Source of the DNA: Alphaproteobacteria bacterium
Lineage (GTDB): Bacteria; Pseudomonadota; Alphaproteobacteria; RF32; CAG-239
Length of the DNA: 52,344 nt
Assembly: GCA_017475525.1 (NCBI GenBank)
Contig: JAFVFH010000036.1
Coordinates: forward strand, 1 to 52,344
Reading direction: 5' to 3'
Below are positions 2,185-52,344 of the stretch, one piece after another (the first letter of the stretch is position 1; every line of letters begins with the position of its first letter). The translations under genes were made by a program, and so were the position numbers. A model generated the notes under the pieces. It saw only the letters and a list, made by a program, of their open reading frames with translations. It made no database searches and was not told the DNA's origin.

Positions 2185-2514
2185 AAATTCTTCTTTACTT
2201 TTCTTGAAATATCTGCCATAATAAAAGCAGATATGAGTTGTGCTCATATTGAGCGTCTTGATAGGCGCGGGGCTGTCGAAAGCTCTTGACCATGTGCGGC
2301 GTAAGGATAACACCGCAAAATGTGCTATTCTTTTTTCTTTTTAAAAAGGTGGTGCATTATCCCCGATGAAACGGTCGGGGAGCTGGTGGCGGATGTTCAA
2401 GATATTTTATCTAAAGGCCATCAGAGTCATTTCACATGGTATGATTTTCGAACTTCCCGTCCGCTCTATTAAGAGCGGCTTCTTGTTATTTAATGATTTT
2501 TAGGAGAGAAAATT

Positions 2515-4197
2515 ATGCAAAAAAAATTTTTTATACTGCCTTTGTTTGCTGCTTTTTTACTATCATCTAATGCAAAAGCGCTTGATTGTCCTTCAGGAAC
2601 AGTGGAAGGCACGAGTTGTTGGGCTGTATATGGAAGCGCACAGGCTGCGTATTTGATTAATGGTGTTTTGACCATACCTACGAATAGTTCTTATGCTAGC
2701 GCATCAAGCACACCATGGTATGGTTCTCGAAGTAAAATTACAAGCGTTGTCGTGACAGGCGGTGGTGGCATCGGAGCTTATGCTCTTGGCGGTTTATCAA
2801 AGGTAACAAGCGTGACATTTACCGGAAATACGTCCGGTTACATTTCTAAAAATGCTTTGAATGGTGCAACGTCATTAAAGACGTTGGTAATTCCAAAGGG
2901 AATGATGATTGAAAACGGAACTTTTACAGGATCCGGTGTGACAACGGTTGTTGCAGATAGGGATGCGGGGTTTGCATCAAAATCTTTTACAGGTCTTTCT
3001 TCAAGCGCCGTTTTGTATTGCGAAAGCGGTACAACCTGTTCAAGTGATGCTAAAAAAACAGGTTTTACCGGAACCGTCCGAAGTTATAATATCGACGCTA
3101 ATGGGGTGTATAGCTATAATGGTAAATATTTTGCTTCGGCGGATAATATGGGAAAAAATAATACATCGGGTTGTAGCACTTTGAGTGCCTGCACAACAAC
3201 AGTTAAAAACAACGAAATTGCCAAAATGGTATCCGAAGGAAAATATTGCAACTCAACAAGCACATGTTCGGCTTTATGGGATATGAAATCAAACGGTTAT
3301 TGTAGCGATTATACGGCGTGCAAAAAACTTTCGGATATGAAAAATGACGGCTATTGCACGGATTACAGCGATTGCAAAACGTTAGTCGATATGGCAAATG
3401 CAAAAACGTATTGCAAAACTATAGATACCTGTAAGGCATTGGTTGATATGAAAGCAAACGGTGATTGTGCAGACTATGCCAAATGTGTGAGTTTGCAACA
3501 AATGCAAACAGCCGGATGTGAGGCCGGAACGTATGATGCTTGCCTGAGCTTGTCACAAATGGAAGGTTGTGAGGGCTATACCGAATGTGCAAGCTTGCAA
3601 CAAATGCAAACAGCCGGATGCGAAGCCGGAACATATGAGGCTTGCTTGAGCTTGTCACAAATGGAAGGTTGTGAGGGCTATACCGAATGTGCAAGCTTGC
3701 AACAAATGCAAACAGCCGGATGCGAAGCCGGAACATATGAGGCTTGCTTGAACTTGTCACAAATGGAAGGTTGCTCGGGCTATGCCGAATGTGCCAGCTT
3801 GCAACAAATGCAAACAGCCGGATGTGAGGCCGGAACGTATGAGGTTTGTTTGAAGTTGTCACAAATGCAGACAAATGGCTATTGCGAAGATTACATTTCT
3901 TGTCAAGCTTTGCAGAATATGGCAGATACGAGCGATTTGTGTTCAACGCCGGAAAGTTGTAAAGAACTGATTGATATGTCAAGCGGAACTTTGTGCAACA
4001 CGCTTGAGAGTTGTCATGAGCTTGTGACAATGGCTAATGCTGGCGAAGTATGTTCAACAGCAGAGGAATGTAAAGCGTATCTTCACCAAAAAGCTGAAGA
4101 AGAACGTGCGTCAAAAATCAAGCGTATCTATACTATTGAAGAGGCAACGCGTCTTTCTAAAGAAACCGGCAACAAATTTAAATTAAGATATAAATAA
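2515..4197 (+). CDS. Secreted protein: N-terminal BspA-like LRR region, ~16-unit Cys-rich repeat array, and conserved C-terminal tail
   Basis: AGGAG RBS and signal peptide (LLSSNAKA). About 16 units of C-x5-6-C-x2-L-x2-M-x3-5. Ends in KRIYTIEEATRLSKETGNKFKLRYK. Confidence 0.8.
   Translation: MQKKFFILPLFAAFLLSSNAKALDCPSGTVEGTSCWAVYGSAQAAYLINGVLTIPTNSSYASASSTPWYGSRSKITSVVVTGGGGIGAYALGGLSKVTSVTFTGNTSGYISKNALNGATSLKTLVIPKGMMIENGTFTGSGVTTVVADRDAGFASKSFTGLSSSAVLYCESGTTCSSDAKKTGFTGTVRSYNIDANGVYSYNGKYFASADNMGKNNTSGCSTLSACTTTVKNNEIAKMVSEGKYCNSTSTCSALWDMKSNGYCSDYTACKKLSDMKNDGYCTDYSDCKTLVDMANAKTYCKTIDTCKALVDMKANGDCADYAKCVSLQQMQTAGCEAGTYDACLSLSQMEGCEGYTECASLQQMQTAGCEAGTYEACLSLSQMEGCEGYTECASLQQMQTAGCEAGTYEACLNLSQMEGCSGYAECASLQQMQTAGCEAGTYEVCLKLSQMQTNGYCEDYISCQALQNMADTSDLCSTPESCKELIDMSSGTLCNTLESCHELVTMANAGEVCSTAEECKAYLHQKAEEERASKIKRIYTIEEATRLSKETGNKFKLRYK
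3484..3865 (+). repeat. In-frame tandem repeat, 102-bp period, ~3.7 copies, inside CDS 2515..4197
   Basis: Copies start at 3484, 3586, 3688 and 3790. Each encodes the 34-aa unit CASLQQMQTAGCEAGTYEACLSLSQMEGCEGYTE. Copies 2 and 3 differ at about 5 of 102 nt by eye. Confidence 0.9.
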
Positions 4198-4252: not shown

Positions 4253-5221
4253 TTAAAGCCGTTCGATTTCGCGGGCGGCGTCAATCGCGGCGTTTAAGGA
4301 GCTGTTCGGTTTGAAGTTGATATAGCGCATATCAAGCGGAGCGGCATAGCGGTTTTCATAAAGCGCATGAATAAAACGATAATGTTTCTTTGTGAGCCAG
4401 CTTTTGCCTTCAAACACAAAAACGGGTTTGCTTGTGCCGCAAGCCTCGGAGGTCATCGAAACGGAATCGCCCGTCACAATAATGTTATCGGCACAGGCAA
4501 GATACCCCAAATATGGATTTTCGTTTTTATCGCCCCACAAAAATGTGTGTGCGGGAATATCCTTTAAGGCTTCCATAATGAGCTTTTGTGCATTTTCGCC
4601 GGTGCGGCGTGAAGTTGTAATCAGGATTGAACCACCGATTTTTTTCTTGAAATCTAAAATTTTATCTGCAAGCCCCTTGGCGTTTTCAAGTGTAAACGGG
4701 CGGTCTTTAATCGCACCGCCGACAATAACCGCCGTTAAAGGCTTGGGTAAATCTTTGAAAGTTTCAGCCCATTTGGCTTCAGCCTCGTCTAAAACCTTCG
4801 GTGTCACACGGTGCGGTGCCCCGATTAAATAGCGAAAACTCTTGCGAAATGGTTTGTCTTTATCATGCTCGGGCAACAAAACAAGCGAAAACTCATCCAG
4901 CCCCGTTTCACCGGGGTGCATAATTTGAATAAGTTGCGTTTGAGGATTTTCCTTTTTGATATAGCGTGCAACGGGAACAGTCCGCCGACTGATGGATAAA
5001 ACCATATTCGGCCATGGTGCCTTAAAGAGTTTTTTCGAATCTTGCGTCAGACCCATGAGCGTTCTGCCTCTGACAAAATTCGGGAGACCTGAAAGTTTTG
5101 TATATTCGATTTTTTTCTCAATGATATCGAAATGGTTGTCATTAAGCTGCTGAATAATACCGCGTGCCTGCCCGACGCTTCCCATACGATTATCAATCAA
5201 TACCCATAAAACTTTTTTCAT
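4253..5221 (-). CDS. ELM1/DUF1022-family protein (GT-B-like fold, function unknown)
   Basis: Family-typical motifs recalled from memory: VLWVLIDNRMGSVGQARG, VIVGGAIK, ITTSRRT, NPYLGYLACADNIIVTGDSVSMTSEA, KPVFVF. Confidence 0.55.
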   Translation of the reverse strand: MKKVLWVLIDNRMGSVGQARGIIQQLNDNHFDIIEKKIEYTKLSGLPNFVRGRTLMGLTQDSKKLFKAPWPNMVLSISRRTVPVARYIKKENPQTQLIQIMHPGETGLDEFSLVLLPEHDKDKPFRKSFRYLIGAPHRVTPKVLDEAEAKWAETFKDLPKPLTAVIVGGAIKDRPFTLENAKGLADKILDFKKKIGGSILITTSRRTGENAQKLIMEALKDIPAHTFLWGDKNENPYLGYLACADNIIVTGDSVSMTSEACGTSKPVFVFEGKSWLTKKHYRFIHALYENRYAAPLDMRYINFKPNSSLNAAIDAAREIERL

Positions 5222-9305: not shown

Positions 9306-10624
9306 AAATCAAACTTATTTCAAGGTTGCTGTTCGGGTTTATCCTTTCGGCGGTTTTTGCTTTTAGTGCAAACGCCGCACCGTCTTTGTTGACGGATGAT
9401 GAAACCGAAACGCTGATCAAAGAGATTGTCAAACCGATTTTTAAGGTGGCGAACGTTTCATTTGATGAAAACCGCATACACCTTTTAAATGATATGAGCT
9501 TAAATGCGTTTGTGAGCGACGGCAACCACTTGTTTGTGCATACGGGCACTATCTTAAAAGCCGAAAACGTGAATGAGATTTCGGGCATTTTAGCGCACGA
9601 AACGGGGCACATAGCCGGTGGGCACATTATGCGTCAAAAGCTTAAGATTCAAGATTTGCAAACCTTGTCAGCCATTTCGCTGATTGCGGCCGGAGGTGCG
9701 GCTGTGGCGTCGGGTAGGGGAGATGCGGCCATGGCCATTGCGCTCGGCTCTCACGGCTCACTCTTAAATTCACTGATGGCCTACCAGATGACGGAAGAAC
9801 GTAGCGCCGATGAGAGTGCGGTCAAATACTTGAAAGCGCTTCATCAGTCGCCGGCAGGGTTGAAAAATTTTATGAAAACGATTCAAAAAACAAACCGCTT
9901 GTCAGGTTATGAAGAAACGCCGTATTTTAGAACACACCCGATGAGCACTGAACGTATGGCGTTTTTTGAAAAAGCCTTAAAACAAAACGGCGGCAAAACG
10001 ACCTCTCCGCTTGATAAAGATTTTGAGTTTGTAAAAGCAAAACTTTTTGCTTTTTTGATGCCTCAAGAGCAAACATTGAAAAAATACCCTTTATCAGACA
10101 AAACAGATACGGCGGTGTATGCACATGCGGTTGTCAAATTCAAACAAAAAAAGTTTGCGGAAGCTGTTTTGCTGATGAATAATTTGATTGAAAGATATCC
10201 TTCAAACCCATATTTTTATCAGCTCAAAGGTCAGTTTTTGTTTGAAAGCGGCAAGCCGGGCGAAGCCTTAAAAGCCTACCAAAAAGCTTTAGAGTTCAAA
10301 CCGAACTCAAATGAAACGATGCTTTTATATGCCGAAAGCGCGATAGAAACAAATTTAAGCAAAACAGAGCTTCAAAATGTGATAGACATTTTGAACAAAC
10401 TTCAAATAAGGCAAGAAACACCGCGTGGCTGGGAGCTTTTAGCCAAAGCCTATTATCAAAAAGGGGTTGAGGCACAAAGCCTGTATGCTTCAGCAAAATA
10501 CAGCTTTTTAATCGGCAATGTGGAAATCGCTAAAAAGCAAATTAAAAAAGCCTTGAGCCTGAATCCCTCCGAGTCGCTTAAGCTCAAACTCAAAGATTTA
10601 GAAGAAGAGCTCAAAGAAGAATAG
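9281..10624 (+). CDS. Periplasmic M48-family zinc metalloprotease with C-terminal TPR repeats (BepA/YfgC-like)
   Basis: Signal peptide (AFSANA), HETGHIAGGH (HExxH), and a TPR-like C-terminal half. The start overlaps the rne 3' end by 25 nt. Confidence 0.75.
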   Translation: MVAQINRLKIKLISRLLFGFILSAVFAFSANAAPSLLTDDETETLIKEIVKPIFKVANVSFDENRIHLLNDMSLNAFVSDGNHLFVHTGTILKAENVNEISGILAHETGHIAGGHIMRQKLKIQDLQTLSAISLIAAGGAAVASGRGDAAMAIALGSHGSLLNSLMAYQMTEERSADESAVKYLKALHQSPAGLKNFMKTIQKTNRLSGYEETPYFRTHPMSTERMAFFEKALKQNGGKTTSPLDKDFEFVKAKLFAFLMPQEQTLKKYPLSDKTDTAVYAHAVVKFKQKKFAEAVLLMNNLIERYPSNPYFYQLKGQFLFESGKPGEALKAYQKALEFKPNSNETMLLYAESAIETNLSKTELQNVIDILNKLQIRQETPRGWELLAKAYYQKGVEAQSLYASAKYSFLIGNVEIAKKQIKKALSLNPSESLKLKLKDLEEELKEE

Positions 10625-10646
10625 TTTGTTGTTACGGCAAATAAGT

Positions 10647-11360
10647 TTATTTATACCGCAATCTAAATGTATTTCCCGCCGGTTTGGAAACTTTGGTCGC
10701 TTCTTCAAGGGTATAAATACGCTTCGGAATATAGTTTCCGTTTTGCATATCCTTAAAATTGGCATATTTTTTGCCGCTAACAGAGTATCTTCCGTCAGCA
10801 TCTATAGTATATACATGAACGCCGGACGGCTTGCCTAAAGCTTTAAGACACTGCGCCGCAAGATTTTCGGGACAATAAAGCGATGCGTCAGTGTAAAAGG
10901 CATGATCGTCAATATATGTTGTCCCTTGAGGAACGGCAATATTTTCTACAGCAGAATTCATAAAAGCCGCACTGCCGATACGTGTCACCGTTTCAGGAAT
11001 GATGATACTTGTTTCCGCCAATTGGTAAAAAGCTGCTGCCCCGATTGATTCAATACCCTCTGATATCTCAATTCTTGTGATATCAAGCGCATAAGTGCCC
11101 CACGGTGCCGATGTTATATGTTGGCTTGTCCAGTTATTGTAAGGTAATACATATGAGTCAACTTGTTGAGAATAATAATCATACATATCTCCCGTGCCGG
11201 AAATCTCGAGTTTCCCATCACTGTATAGTTTCCAAGTGCAATTATCGCCGCATTTTGTCGTCGCATCATTCGGGTCTGTTTGAGCAATAATTGTTATTTC
11301 ATCGTTTGCCAGTACATTAAAACTTAAAATTAGACCCAAAATTAAAACAGTTTTCTTCAT
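10647..11360 (-). CDS. Secreted BspA-type LRR protein with conserved C-terminal tail
   Basis: Signal peptide. CGDNCTWKLYSDGKLEISGTG..APWG opening followed by LRR_5-like repeats. Ends in KRIYTLEEATKVSKPAGNTFRLRYK. Confidence 0.8.
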   Translation of the reverse strand: MKKTVLILGLILSFNVLANDEITIIAQTDPNDATTKCGDNCTWKLYSDGKLEISGTGDMYDYYSQQVDSYVLPYNNWTSQHITSAPWGTYALDITRIEISEGIESIGAAAFYQLAETSIIIPETVTRIGSAAFMNSAVENIAVPQGTTYIDDHAFYTDASLYCPENLAAQCLKALGKPSGVHVYTIDADGRYSVSGKKYANFKDMQNGNYIPKRIYTLEEATKVSKPAGNTFRLRYK

Positions 11361-11383
11361 AGTTTTTCTCCTGCATGATAAAT

Positions 11384-11543
11384 AAAAAAAACCACCTTGA
11401 AAAATCCAAAGTGGGAGCCCTAAAAACTGTCGCAGACAGACTCTCTTATTCGCCGCAAAATTGCGCTTATCTCGAGAACTCCCATTAAAAGGAGCTGTTC
11501 TGCGAAGATGTTTTTAGGAACACCATAGCCAACTCGGCTACAT
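11384..11543 (-). promoter_or_regulatory. Structured leader RNA, copy A (unclassified motif ending in an intrinsic terminator)
   Basis: Promoter TTGACT(11572-11577)-17-CAAAAT(11549-11554). Shares with copies B, C and D: two 5' hairpins, CUCC/GGAG hairpin, GAnAUAAG-hairpin-CGAAUAA, CUGU/ACAG hairpin, GCUCCC, then CCACTTTG/CAAGGTGG followed by T8. Confidence 0.7.
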
Positions 11544-11710
11544 TTTTTATTTTGCCATATTTGATTTTAAAAGTCAAAGAAAAAATATTAAAAAAAGACT
11601 TGATTTTTGCTTAAAATCGTGTATAAGCTCTTTTCTGTTAACCGGCGGAGCGGGCGAAATGGCATGCCTGACCGCTTGAATATCAATCCATTTTTATGAA
11701 GGAAGATAAA

Positions 11711-19141: not shown

Positions 19142-20170
19142 TTATTTATAGCGCAGTTTGAAGGTGTTGCCGGTTGGTTTGGAAACCTTCGTAGCCTCTT
19201 CAATGGTGTAGATGCGCTTGTTTTTATATCCGATGACATTACCGTCTTTATCAACGATAGTATAACTGCCGTCATTTTCATTGTAAATTTCTTTGTTTGA
19301 GCTTCTCATCGGTGCTTGTATCATGTTATATGTTCCTTTTTGATAACCTGCGGTGAGCATGTTCGCCTCACAAACGGAGATTTTTCCGGTGCAATGAATC
19401 GTAATCCCTTCCAATGGAAGATCCCTATCAAAACCATCGGCAAAGAAAATTCGACCATCGCTGTATGATATAACGTAATCGTTTGCATCAGGATATTGGG
19501 TAAAATATGCCATTGCTGCATCAACATCTTTTTGTGTGAAATAACCTGTTTCTATCCTTTCTTGTAATTGAAATTTGCCAAAATCATCGTCATAAATCAT
19601 ATATCTTGGAATTAAAATATCTTTTTCTGATGTTCTGATGGGTGTATGTTCCCCAATAGTGACATCTGTAAGTGGGACATTATAAAAGGCGTATGCTCCT
19701 ATGATCTCGACCGAATCGGGAATATCTATGCTCTGAAGCGATGAGTTTTGAAATGCATGCTCCCCAATTTTAGTTACACTATCTGGAATATTAATAGAAC
19801 TTAAAGTGTGAGATTCAAAGGCAAATTCTCCAATTTCTTTTAGTCCTTCAGGAAGATTCACACTTTGCATATGATTGTAAAATTCAATTCTATATGCAAA
19901 TGCCCCATTAGGTATTCTTTCTATACCTTTTTCAAGAGTTAAAGAAAAATTATCTTCATTAAGTTTGTTGCGAACTTCGTTATTCCAGACTTGTACAAAA
20001 TTTGCCGGTATTGTGTAAGTTATGGATGAATCATTTGGGCCGAGAATAAGTTGCCTCGTTTCGGAATTAAAAGTCCATTTGCAATTAGTGCCACAATCAT
20101 CACCCGTAAGAATTTCGGCATTTGCATGAAAAGTTGCAGCCAACCCCAAAATCAAAATCAATTTTCTCAT
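19142..20170 (-). CDS. Secreted BspA-type LRR protein with conserved C-terminal tail
   Basis: Signal peptide. CGTNCKWTFNSETRQLILG opening followed by IPDSV..IG..AF repeats. Ends in KRIYTIEEATKVSKPTGNTFKLRYK. Confidence 0.8.
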   Translation of the reverse strand: MRKLILILGLAATFHANAEILTGDDCGTNCKWTFNSETRQLILGPNDSSITYTIPANFVQVWNNEVRNKLNEDNFSLTLEKGIERIPNGAFAYRIEFYNHMQSVNLPEGLKEIGEFAFESHTLSSINIPDSVTKIGEHAFQNSSLQSIDIPDSVEIIGAYAFYNVPLTDVTIGEHTPIRTSEKDILIPRYMIYDDDFGKFQLQERIETGYFTQKDVDAAMAYFTQYPDANDYVISYSDGRIFFADGFDRDLPLEGITIHCTGKISVCEANMLTAGYQKGTYNMIQAPMRSSNKEIYNENDGSYTIVDKDGNVIGYKNKRIYTIEEATKVSKPTGNTFKLRYK

Positions 20171-20191: not shown

Positions 20192-20352
20192 AAAAACCGT
20201 TTAAGATAAACCAAAAACGGAGGAGCTAGAAAACTGCCATTGCACAGCTTGCTTTATTCGTGCGTCTGAATACGCCTTATTTCAACAACTCCTCTGCAAA
20301 GGAGCTATACAATGGATGTGTTTTCTAAACACCGCAACCATTTTGGTTACAT
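20192..20352 (-). promoter_or_regulatory. Structured leader RNA, copy B
   Basis: Promoter TTTACT(20381-20386)-17-CATAAT(20358-20363). The 5' 27 nt are identical to copy C. Same helices as the other copies, with terminator CCGTTT/AAACGG plus T5. Confidence 0.7.
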
Positions 20353-20523
20353 TCTGTATTATGGCATATCTCAAATCAAAAGTAAATAAAAAATATTGCA
20401 TTTTTTTCAATTAAATATATCATAAAAATACTTGTTTTGATTTTTAGTCACTTATTAACAATATTTATTATGAAAATCGATTGTATTATTTTAGTGCCTC
20501 AAAAAACATATTGGGGCGGAAAA

Positions 20524-36747: not shown

Positions 36748-36796
36748 ATAATAAAATAATGCTTGATTTTTTTCAAAGCTACACTTATGATGATAA

Positions 36797-36955
36797 GTGC
36801 AGCGGGTTGTTGCAGTGTCTAATCAACACTTAAAATCCGAGGAAACTCCTCATGAAGGGGAGTTCTTGAGATAAGCATATTTTATGGCGAATAAAAGAGT
36901 CTGTTCTCGGACAGTTGATTAGCTCCCCGTTTTGATTTTTCAAAGCGGTTTTTTT
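36797..36955 (+). promoter_or_regulatory. Structured leader RNA, copy D (upstream of the pilin-like gene)
   Basis: Promoter TTGATT(36763-36768)-17-TATGAT(36786-36791). Same helices and conserved single-stranded blocks as the other copies. Terminator CCGTTTTGA/TCAAAGCGG plus T7. Confidence 0.7.
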
Positions 36956-36976: not shown

Positions 36977-37627
36977 ATGATGAATAAAGAAAATGGTCGT
37001 TCTATGGTCGAAATGCTGGGTGTTTTGGCGATTGTCGGGGTATTGAGCGCAGGTGCTTTGGCAGGCTATTTGAAAGCAATGACGCAACATAAACTCAATA
37101 AACATACACAAGAAATCAGTTATCTTTTGGCAACGGCAATTTATAATCAAGACAAAATCATTGATACAAATTCACAAGAAGAGTACATATCAGCTTTAGA
37201 TGCTCTTGGAGCTTTTACATGGACGACAAATTTGCAAAATCAAGGAGAATCAACATATAAAATCATGACAGACAGCCTTCAAAATACCATATCTTTTGAG
37301 CACAGTGCAGGTAGCGGTACGGCCTTTGTTGTCATTTTAAATAAGTCTGATTTCAGGATGAAGGTGTGTTACAATTATATCAACATTTTCAAAAACCTTT
37401 CAAATGAACTCGACGTAATTTATGTAACAAGAAGTAAAACAGGACAAGCAAAAGAGAGAAATACATATATTGGCAAAACATGCACATCAGAAAAATGTTT
37501 GGAAACTATAACAAATACTGATATTTCAGAACTTTGCGGACAAGTGTGTGATGACGCGGACAGGTGTGTTTTATATGCCCTTTGGGGTTATCCTGCATCA
37601 ACAGTGGCAGGTTTGCTCGGGCAATAA
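36977..37627 (+). CDS. Type IV pilin/pseudopilin-like protein with non-canonical prepilin signal
   Basis: MMNKENG|RSMVEMLGVLAIVGVLSAGALAGY: Gly, then Glu at +5, then a hydrophobic helix. Arg at +1 is unusual. Cys-rich C-terminus. Confidence 0.6.
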   Translation: MMNKENGRSMVEMLGVLAIVGVLSAGALAGYLKAMTQHKLNKHTQEISYLLATAIYNQDKIIDTNSQEEYISALDALGAFTWTTNLQNQGESTYKIMTDSLQNTISFEHSAGSGTAFVVILNKSDFRMKVCYNYINIFKNLSNELDVIYVTRSKTGQAKERNTYIGKTCTSEKCLETITNTDISELCGQVCDDADRCVLYALWGYPASTVAGLLGQ

Positions 37628-51636: not shown

Positions 51637-51652
51637 TAAGCTTTAAGCAGAC

Positions 51653-51686
51653 AAAAAAAGACCGGGCATTTGCTCGGTCTTTTTTT
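51653..51686 (+). terminator. Rho-independent terminator after rpsA
   Basis: GACCGGGC-attt-GCTCGGTC followed by T7. Confidence 0.8.
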
Positions 51687-51721
51687 GCTTTACATTTTCA
51701 AAATTTTATGACATAATCAAA

Positions 51722-51879
51722 AATGTAACCAAAATGGTTGCGGTGTTTCATTAACATCTATTCTACCGAAACTCCTTTTTTGAGGAGTTGGTGATATAAG
51801 GTTTCACGAATAAGCCAAGCTGTCGGTAGAACAGTTAATGAGCTCCTCCATTTTGAGTTTTTCAAAATGGATTTTTTTT
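51722..51879 (+). promoter_or_regulatory. Structured leader RNA, copy C
   Basis: Promoter TTTACA(51689-51694)-17-CATAAT(51712-51717). Hairpins AACCA/TGGTT and TGTT/AACA. AACTCC/GGAGTT. GATATAAG..CGAATAAG. CTGT/ACAG. AGCTCCTCC. Terminator TCCATTTTGA/TCAAAATGGA plus T8. Confidence 0.7.
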
Positions 51880-51928
51880 GTAAACATCATACTGAACTCG
51901 TTTCAGCATCTAATTAAGGAGAAATAAT

Positions 51929-52344
51929 ATGAAAAAATTAGTTTTTATTTTTTGGGTGGTTGTTATGTTATTATCTTTTAATACAATGGCTAAAGTAACT
52001 GGTGGTAGTTGTTCCAATGATGGATGTCAATGGTCATATAACAGTGATACCAAAGAACTGACAATTACAGGAAACGGCGCGAGTGTTATGGATAACTATA
52101 CGCCATATTCTAAAGAAAATCCTGTTCCGTGGGCTGCTTATCATGAGGAAATTGAAAGCGTTTCTGTCAGCGGATTAAAATCAACCGGAGATAGAGCTTT
52201 TCTTTTTCATACGGCATTGACAGATGTTTCACTTTCTGAAGGATTGCAGACATTAAATTTTGGTGCTTTTTATGGCGCAAGCAGTTTGGAAAACGTCAAT
52301 CTTCCTGCCTCACTAACACAAATCGGTGATAGAGCTTTCCACCA
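51929..52344 (+). CDS. Secreted BspA-type LRR protein, 5' part only (runs off the window)
   Basis: AAGGAG RBS and signal peptide. CSNDGCQWSYNSDTKELTITGNG...PVPWAAY opening followed by LRR_5-like repeats. The C-terminus is not visible. Confidence 0.75.
   Translation, partial: MKKLVFIFWVVVMLLSFNTMAKVTGGSCSNDGCQWSYNSDTKELTITGNGASVMDNYTPYSKENPVPWAAYHEEIESVSVSGLKSTGDRAFLFHTALTDVSLSEGLQTLNFGAFYGASSLENVNLPASLTQIGDRAFH

Follow-up and report, generated by a model that had tools for sequence, protein, structure and literature searches.

The window, that is, the whole stretch of 52,344 nucleotides that was analysed, contains exactly four copies of an intergenic leader element. From promoter to terminator, copy A occupies positions 11384-11577 on the reverse strand, 5′ of an LRR_5 gene (10647-11360(-)), and copy B (20192-20386(-)) similarly lies 5′ of an LRR_5 gene at 19142-20170(-). 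Copy D (36763-36955(+)) is followed by a pilin-like gene (36977-37627(+)) and copy C (51689-51879(+)) by a further LRR_5 gene with its ATG at 51929. Covariance model (CM) matches were obtained at 11411-11543, 20219-20352, 36797-36929 and 51723-51849 for copies A, B, D and C, respectively, with E-values from 8e-18 to 5e-29, all within the coordinates given by an earlier reading of the window made without database searches (the sequence-only reading). The 17-nt core GGAGTTNNNGANATAAG gave four matches, against 0.05 expected from shuffles, and a MAFFT alignment of the four regions displayed promoter hexamers, all conserved blocks and a hairpin with T-run. On these three grounds, the claim of the sequence-only reading that four intergenic regions share one architecture was borne out.

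Coordinates within the leader refer below to copy C and its forward strand. The upstream rpsA gene has a strong, separate intrinsic terminator of its own (51652-51687(+); 16-bp stem with 7 G-C pairs), and as this lies immediately ahead of the leader promoter, copy C is insulated from rpsA transcription. The promoter, located by a promoter scan at 51689-51717(+), consists of a -35 hexamer TTTACA (51689-51694), a 17-nt spacer and an extended -10 element TG-n-CATAAT (51712-51717); 10 of 12 sigma70 hexamer positions are matched, the upstream TG is present, and copy D is similar. Judged from the sequence, the transcript probably starts at about 51722-51724, 1-3 nt 5′ of the first helix, P1. Following anchoring on P1, 23 copies gave the promoter consensus TTTGAC(T/A)...TRTGnnATAAT, then 7-8 nt, then GUAACC, with about 17 nt between -35 and -10 (TTGAC(A/T), TG-n-(n)ATAAT). 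At the other end of the leader, a hairpin scan identified an intrinsic terminator at 51847-51879(+), consisting of an 11-bp stem-loop (51847-51871) and a T-run of eight (51872-51879); that of copy D resembles it. The gene behind copy C starts with the ribosome-binding site (RBS) AAGGAG (51916-51921) and the ATG at 51929, and is present up to 52342 (51916-52342(+)), where it leaves the window. Its product is a signal-peptide BspA-type LRR protein (Pfam LRR_5, E = 9.7e-10) which continues beyond the window end.

A hairpin followed by a T-run was found 3′ of 76 of 78 copies, with a mean ΔG of -11 kcal/mol and about 9.6 bp. The terminator stem begins immediately past the 3′ CUCC (0 nt) in 45 copies and after 0-2 nt in most. 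Both the sigma70-type promoter with 17-nt spacer (copies C and D, and the consensus over 23 copies) and the intrinsic terminator shortly 5′ of the RBS (76 of 78 copies) had been proposed from the sequence and were recovered here, but the terminator stem, described as GC-rich, proved to be AU-rich, with 3 of 11 pairs G-C in copy C. The two apparent exceptions, L020 and L067 (loci are designated L followed by a number), were rejected as copies lacking a terminator: L020 carries an insertion of about 115 nt within the terminator loop, and L067 has the same downstream sequence. This element (L020 ~2440-2570(-), also L067) is flanked by a short TTTGATG repeat and, from its sequence, looks like a small mobile insertion.

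For analysis of the fold, 89 distinct, real sequences were realigned by the CM. With the alignment thus fitted to the structure, 98.4% of cells in the fold P1-P6 were paired, double changes occurred in 27 of 33 pairs and 709 cells were compensatory. The covariation score was 0.719, vs 0.06-0.10 in controls whose partners were displaced by 1-3 columns; it was reached by none of 500 shuffles. In an alignment-independent test, contiguous pairing in P2 (X:X′) averaged 8.35 bp with the own partner vs 4.72 bp with non-self partners; for P3 (Y:Y′) the means were 6.46 and 3.81 bp, respectively. The P1-P6 fold was also given by single-sequence MFE folds in almost all copies, and for the 157-nt transcript of copy C the folding z-score was -6.58 vs dinucleotide shuffles. 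The MFE folds add to P2 a GGUG:CUCC extension, which, being invariant, is beyond the reach of covariation. G-U pairing, common on the transcribed strand in the covariation alignment, points to a structure of RNA and not of double-stranded DNA. The alignments indicate that the leader contains a domain of about 125 nt with six helices, P1-P6, fixed by covariation; an analysis of covariation with more homologs, as proposed by the sequence-only reading, has in this way been carried out on 89 sequences and supports P1-P6.

In copy C the domain opens with P1, the 5′-terminal hairpin GUAACC-AAAAU-GGUUGC (51725-51741(+)), of which 6/6 pairs change on both sides and 99.4% of cells are paired. Next to it lies the invariant GGUGU (51742-51746(+)); among 77 sequences G28, T29 and G30 are invariant, and G27 and T31 reach at least 90%. 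The partner of GGUG in the MFE fold is the 3′ CUCC (P2a, which contains a U-U mismatch); for the early phase of transcription, prefix folds of copy C place GGUGU in a local hairpin with AACAUC. The 5′ strand of P2 (X, UUCAUUAAC, 51747-51755(+)) pairs with 51834-51842, with double changes in 7/9 pairs, and is separated by J2/3 (AUCUA, consensus A-Y-n-U, 51756-51760(+)), seen in the alignments as the 5′ side of the P2/P3 internal loop, from the 5′ strand of P3 (Y, UUCUACCG, 51761-51768(+)), which pairs with 51824-51831 and shows double changes in 7/7 pairs. The P4 hairpin (51770-51787(+)) comprises the 5′ arm AACUCC (51770-51775), a loop (51776-51783) and the core GGAG (51784-51787), its CUCC:GGAG helix being near-invariant and about 98% paired. 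P5 is formed by UUGGU (51788-51792(+)) and GCCAA (51814-51818), with double changes in 5/5 pairs. Between the P5 strands lies an invariant internal loop (51793-51813(+), 77 sequences) made of GAUAUAAG (51793-51800) and CGAAUAA (51807-51813); G78, A79, A81-G85 and C92-A98 are without variation across the 77 sequences. The P6 position is reduced in copy C to 6 nt (51801-51806); in copies that do possess the helix, covariation is seen in its outer pairs (CG 49, GC 30, UA 6). The 3′ strand of P5 and the junction strand GCUGU (51819-51823), assigned by alignment and covariation, occupy 51814-51823(+). Pairing tests and covariation likewise place the 3′ strand of P3 (51824-51831), J3/2 CA (51832-51833) and the 3′ strand of P2 (51834-51842) at 51824-51842(+). 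P2 (8-10 bp) and P3 (6-8 bp) are accordingly long-range helices, enclosing a three-way junction of P4 and the P5-P6 arm.

The same pairings were apparent when 79 parsed copies were read side by side. The loop of GUGU...ACAC (X) complements the segment directly before the 3′ CUCC (X′), and the loop of CUGU...ACAG (Y′) complements Y, a segment 5′ of the 5′ arm, the sequences of X and Y differing per copy. In P5, three variable bases past GGAGUU pair with three bases past CGAAUAA; because P5 pairs their flanks, GAnAUAAG and CGAAUAA form the two sides of an internal loop below P6. The sequence-only reading had listed these blocks, all of which are present in the MAFFT alignment, around a variable hairpin that in copy C has shrunk to the 6 nt given above. 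It had further built the element from small local hairpins. The inverted repeats behind these, GUGU/ACAY and CUGU/RCAG, do exist, but their loops are strands of the long-range helices P2 and P3. Its second 5′ hairpin and its CUGU-loop-ACAG hairpin are not backed by covariation: P2 and P3, both missed in that reading, close the domain instead, with P5 enclosing the conserved blocks as an internal loop. The local hairpins were chosen as the main fold by RNAalifold on the plain MAFFT alignment, yet were rejected: they are near-invariant, their changes are only wobble-compatible, and their loops covary with distant strands. Pairing of CUGU with RCAG was discarded since the A/G of RCAG tracks Y and not CUGU, with Watson-Crick covariation between this A/G and the base that opens Y (UA 67, CG 16). 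In prefix folding, the GGUGUU:AACAUC hairpin forms first and is displaced once X′ emerges, with a gain of only about 2 kcal/mol. On this modelling the local hairpins are possible transient forms during transcription, and, because their displacement gains so little, GGUGUU:AACAUC may act as a kinetic gate. A leader peptide was also considered; AUG-UAA mini-ORFs at the 5′ end and UUG-nnn-UAA past the core occur in some copies, but direct reading found them not to be conserved.

The GGAG core has a second potential partner. The 3′ arm AGCUCCUC (51841-51848(+)) is complementary to GAGGAGUU (51782-51789), and the resulting helix, P4′, has 2 nt in common with P2 and another 2 nt in common with the terminator stem. 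Covariation links the position preceding GGAG to the one that follows the 3′ CUCC (AU 52, GC 23, CG 4, UA 1), as RNAalifold also finds. The L001/L049 lineage shows a triple compensation, in which C has become U before GGAG in the core and each of the two arms, 5′ and 3′, has changed from G to A. Because the core covaries with both arms, P4 and P4′ are both under selection, and this covariation upholds the earlier proposal that GGAG alternates between a 5′ and a 3′ CUCC arm. P4′ comprises 7-9 bp, its two inner pairs being shared with the end of X′; given these shared last 2 nt and the lack of a linker between P4′ and P2, it excludes P2. A putative H-type pseudoknot, connected by X′, would accommodate P4′ together with P3.

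Coupling of P4′ to the terminator was assessed in 76 copies. The overlap of P4′ with the terminator stem measures 2 nt in 35 copies, 1 nt in 13 and at least 3 nt in 12, and is absent (0 nt) in 16; P4′ thus takes 1-5 nt of the terminator base in 60/76 copies and merely abuts it in 16/76. An abutment or an overlap of 1-2 nt had been predicted from the sequence, and the mode is indeed 2 nt. The bases concerned are the terminator closing pairs beside the U-tract, and in intrinsic termination the closing pairs next to the U-tract matter most. In nested folding, the fully nested state lies about 9.6 kcal/mol below the state with forced P4′, and forcing P4′ lowers the number of terminator pairs from 7.7 to 6.4. 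The antiterminator is weak on paper, as the terminator retains most of its pairs. Four upstream segments were compared with both terminator halves; own and non-self duplex energies were equal and no other copy-specific complementarity was found, so P1 and the other upstream segments do not pair with the terminator in a copy-specific manner and were rejected as a second antiterminator. In copy C, an 8-bp complementarity of P1 to the terminator is marginal in the prefix MFE. From these models, P4′ is taken to be the putative antiterminator, and the state that permits termination is identified with the fully nested fold. The structure has good support and the switch has support, while a read-out through the terminator is plausible but unproven.

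In a search for the exact pattern across GTDB, with each species represented by one genome, 77 loci were recovered, all of them from about 13 MAGs of uncultured gut and rumen Alphaproteobacteria, with no chance matches elsewhere. The MAGs include RUG13121 (about 30 matches), RUG11221, UBA3773, several RGIG MAGs, MGYG-HGUT-04444 and MGBC133411. A bootstrap covariance model was matched to the window and the resulting loci, giving 90 matches (four in the window, 86 in the 77 loci), including copies missed by the pattern. All 90 matches belong to a single clade. Viral contigs were searched as well and yielded 0 leader matches, and a phage origin was therefore rejected.

Further observations were made among the relatives. 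In MAG CAMOYJ01, which is about 92-93% identical to the window in housekeeping stretches, the same leader slot can be followed by a different gene (window 10621-11386 vs L039 4474-5099; window 51723-52344 vs L045), an LRR protein gene in the window corresponding to a pilin-like protein gene in CAMOYJ01 at orthologous slots. As the gene behind the leader differs at orthologous positions, cassette-like exchange of surface-protein genes between repeated leaders is suggested by the sequences. Tandem leaders occur in L070 (164-300(-) and 601-735(-)) and L074 (93-226(-) and 331-462(-)), about 240-440 nt apart; no long ORF was detected between the tandem leaders of these two loci. L042 (286-426(-)) contains a degenerate relative with a weak CM match (23 bits), in which the loop blocks are changed to AAAAUAAA and CAAUAU, and L060 (7094-7213(+)) a degenerate copy without its 5′ half. 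By sequence, these may be decayed copies or a divergent variant.

A same-strand downstream ORF with RBS could be called for 81 of the 90 CM matches, most of the other nine running off the locus end. Signal-peptide proteins with a common C-terminal motif, many with BspA-type LRR_5 repeats, are encoded by 30 of these ORFs, and 14 further ORFs encode signal-peptide proteins, often cut at the locus end. Nine products are pilin-like, with the N-terminus GRSMVEMLGVLA, and about 16 are small HTH-like proteins of 73-95 aa; single cases comprise an outer-membrane beta-barrel protein, a sulfatase-family membrane enzyme, a hexapeptide acetyltransferase and an HTH_3 regulator. As predicted from these products, the set of controlled genes is a cell-surface one (LRR adhesin-like, pilin-like, outer-membrane and envelope-modifying) plus the small HTH-like proteins. 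The common C-terminal motif, of about 25 aa, reads K-R-I-Y-T-[IVL]-[DE]-E-A...N-x-[FV]-x-[IL]-[RK]-Y-[RK]-COOH and is carried by the window genes 19142-20170(-) and 10647-11360(-) and by the 30 downstream ORFs in loci L002-L077. It has no match in Pfam or NCBIfam and, by its sequence, may be a lineage-specific sorting or secretion signal. In several MAG lineages the small genes for 73-95-aa proteins are monocistronic and alone follow the leader (L001, L025, L026, L041, L046, L048, L049 and L062; L005, L015, L016, L020, L034 and L052). Their products gave no Pfam or NCBIfam match, and the best PDB match was a weak one to an XRE-type regulator (E = 0.52). With no significant match in these three databases they were rejected as identifiable RNA-binding regulators; from the sequence they could still be regulators under the control of the leader itself. 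In L062, the gene upstream of the small-protein leader (4679-5047(+)) resembles, by eye, the alphaproteobacterial flagellar regulator FlaF.

The whole window was compared with Rfam 15 (4227 covariance models, including c-di-GMP-I/II, T-box, PyrR, ZTP and fluoride), resulting in 0 matches at gathering thresholds. At E ≤ 10, copy C gave only terminator- and sRNA-like noise, mostly on the rpsA terminator; the best match inside the element was PyrR, at 21.5 bits vs a gathering threshold of 54. Copy B gave 0 matches at E ≤ 1. Membership in any Rfam 15 family was rejected for want of a gathering-level match, which agrees with the earlier designation of the element as an unclassified leader RNA, and no description of the motif was found in the literature.

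Several known systems are nevertheless instructive. As in riboswitches, a structured domain backed by covariation lies in cis in the 5′ UTR, the promoter ending 7-8 nt before P1. A conserved multi-helix 5′ leader with invariant junction nucleotides is likewise found in the ZTP/pfl, fluoride/crcB and c-di-GMP riboswitches. ZTP/pfl and fluoride/crcB also terminate transcription with a switching strand that overlaps the terminator only slightly, their 3′ strand pairing back into the sensor domain or leaving the terminator intact. The c-di-GMP-I/II riboswitches occur in many copies per genome before adhesin, pilus and surface-protein genes, a setting shared by the leader, which has no sequence or structure match to any of these riboswitch families. 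Unlike in these riboswitches, there are two long-range closing helices, a CUCC/GGAG/CUCC swap and a GAnAUAAG/CGAAUAA loop, all the leader's own. A chain of mutually exclusive pairings recalls trp-type 1:2 / 2:3 / 3:4 attenuators: 5′ arm:core would correspond to the anti-antiterminator, core:3′ arm to the antiterminator, and the 3′ arm with the following bases to the terminator. It differs from them in having no leader peptide and a terminator overlap of only 0-5 nt. T-box leaders are likewise large, with dozens of copies per genome, but the leader has no Rfam T-box match and controls surface-protein rather than aminoacyl-tRNA or amino-acid genes; judged by the Rfam models and the regulated genes, it is not a T-box. 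RAT/BglG-LicT sites, ANTAR dual hairpins and PyrR sites share with it default termination and an alternative structure over the 5′ base of the terminator. They are short hairpins, whereas the leader is a 125-nt six-helix domain. A UAA/GAN internal-loop motif is said to have been described by Lee, Gutell and Russell in 2006. The GAnAUAAG/CGAAUAA loop, read antiparallel, sets GAN opposite UAA twice (window 51793-51813, all copies), a resemblance in sequence only; this suggests that the loop is a tertiary-contact module and not a simple open loop. The UAA/GAN motif is not known to occur in such a tandem, pseudo-symmetric arrangement. The leader is a new family within a known kind and a member of no family compared here.

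Taken at somewhat better than even confidence, the leaders constitute a previously undescribed family of cis-acting 5′ leaders of about 155 nt, each a transcription attenuator with a riboswitch-like sensor that controls read-through into the next gene. Two RNA states are envisaged. In state A, P2, P3 and P4 would be formed, GGUG would be paired with the 3′ CUCC and the terminator would be whole, switching expression off. State B would arise when the core is captured by the 3′ arm (7-9 bp), with P2 excluded and P3 possibly kept as a pseudoknot; the bottom 1-5 bp of the terminator stem beside the U-tract would be lost, favouring read-through and turning expression on. The balance between A and B would be shifted by an effector that binds to the conserved junctions and loops. 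Control in cis is supported by the downstream RBS and ORF, which have the same orientation as the leader, and by a gap between terminator and RBS that is too small for a promoter (copies such as L028). Against an attenuator stand the 16/76 copies in which P4′ only abuts the terminator and the advantage of state A of about 9.6 kcal/mol. The effector may be a small molecule or second messenger, as in a riboswitch, or a protein, the former being somewhat more likely; the narrow distribution is equally compatible with a ligand and with a lineage-specific protein factor.

In its most specific form, which is put forward tentatively and at less than an even chance, the leader would be a new riboswitch class: a six-helix aptamer for a small molecule or second messenger, with a CUCC/GGAG/CUCC swap that is possibly pseudoknotted, setting the expression of essentially the entire repertoire of secreted adhesins, pilins and envelope genes, which numbers at least 30 genes in each genome.

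A protein or other macromolecule could replace the ligand, the fold then binding a lineage-specific factor that stabilises P4′, with state A as default. This is rather unlikely, and it has several points in its favour. The thermodynamics strongly favour state A, so that the on state would be reached more readily with an active factor; the family is limited to one clade, in about 13 MAGs; and the small HTH-like genes behind the leader in several MAGs would allow a possible feedback loop. Weighing against it, about 50 invariant nucleotides are concentrated in the multi-helix junctions of the 125-nt domain, and such numbers of invariant junction nucleotides are more typical of ligand- or tRNA-binding leaders than of known protein-binding attenuator sites. 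PyrR stayed at 21.5 bits vs 54, no other protein-binding leader family was among the matches at E ≤ 10, and no candidate protein was found, the small proteins having no significant Pfam, NCBIfam or PDB match.

An independent small RNA gene, of which the terminated transcript of about 155 nt would itself be the product, acting in trans or sequestering a protein, with gene adjacency secondary, is improbable. In nearly all callable copies the first RBS-bearing ORF lies on the same strand 30-100 nt past the domain, with no room for a promoter. Variation of the helix sequences between copies leaves no common seed for trans pairing, and P4′ covaries and overlaps the terminator. These points are set against a strong promoter and a terminator of its own in each copy, an MFE fold fully compatible with the terminator, and the tandem copies of L070 and L074 with no long ORF in between.

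Translational control, in which a free 3′ arm CUCCUCC would mask an AGGAG RBS in one state while the terminator served as a leaky insulator, is given very little weight. Both arms do contain CUCC, the RBSs are of GGAG type and, in some copies (L028, L037, L056), the RBS lies directly past the T-run; but complementarity between CUCC and GGAG is to be expected of any Shine-Dalgarno sequence, the arm-RBS distance ranges from 35 to more than 150 nt, the 3′ CUCC is paired in both modelled states (with GGUG or with the core), and the universal terminator would be left unexplained. That the element has no regulatory function, being an inherited 5′ region of paralogous genes or a repeat at the level of DNA (a recombination site, for instance), is scarcely credible and already contradicted by covariation: many downstream genes are paralogous LRR genes and the exchange of the gene behind the leader between close genomes suggests recombination at repeats, but the helices vary with pairing kept (hundreds of compensatory cells), unpaired junction bases are invariant, G-U pairs are strand-specific, and the gene families behind the leader are unrelated (LRR, pilin-like, outer-membrane beta-barrel, sulfatase-family, acetyltransferase, HTH).

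The attenuator reading remains the preferred one. The leader is a strong candidate for an orphan riboswitch, unusual in its partner swap and striking in its regulon of surface-protein genes, but no new principle is at stake unless the effector proves novel. As a well-defined RNA, with a fold backed by covariation and a design of two states, the leader lends itself to biochemistry, and its family is an Rfam candidate. Even with a protein effector, a single leader over dozens of unrelated surface-protein genes would represent a regulon hidden from protein annotation. If it is a riboswitch, it would provide a new aptamer fold, perhaps with a new ligand, and a handle on surface and adhesin switching in abundant uncultured gut and rumen Alphaproteobacteria.
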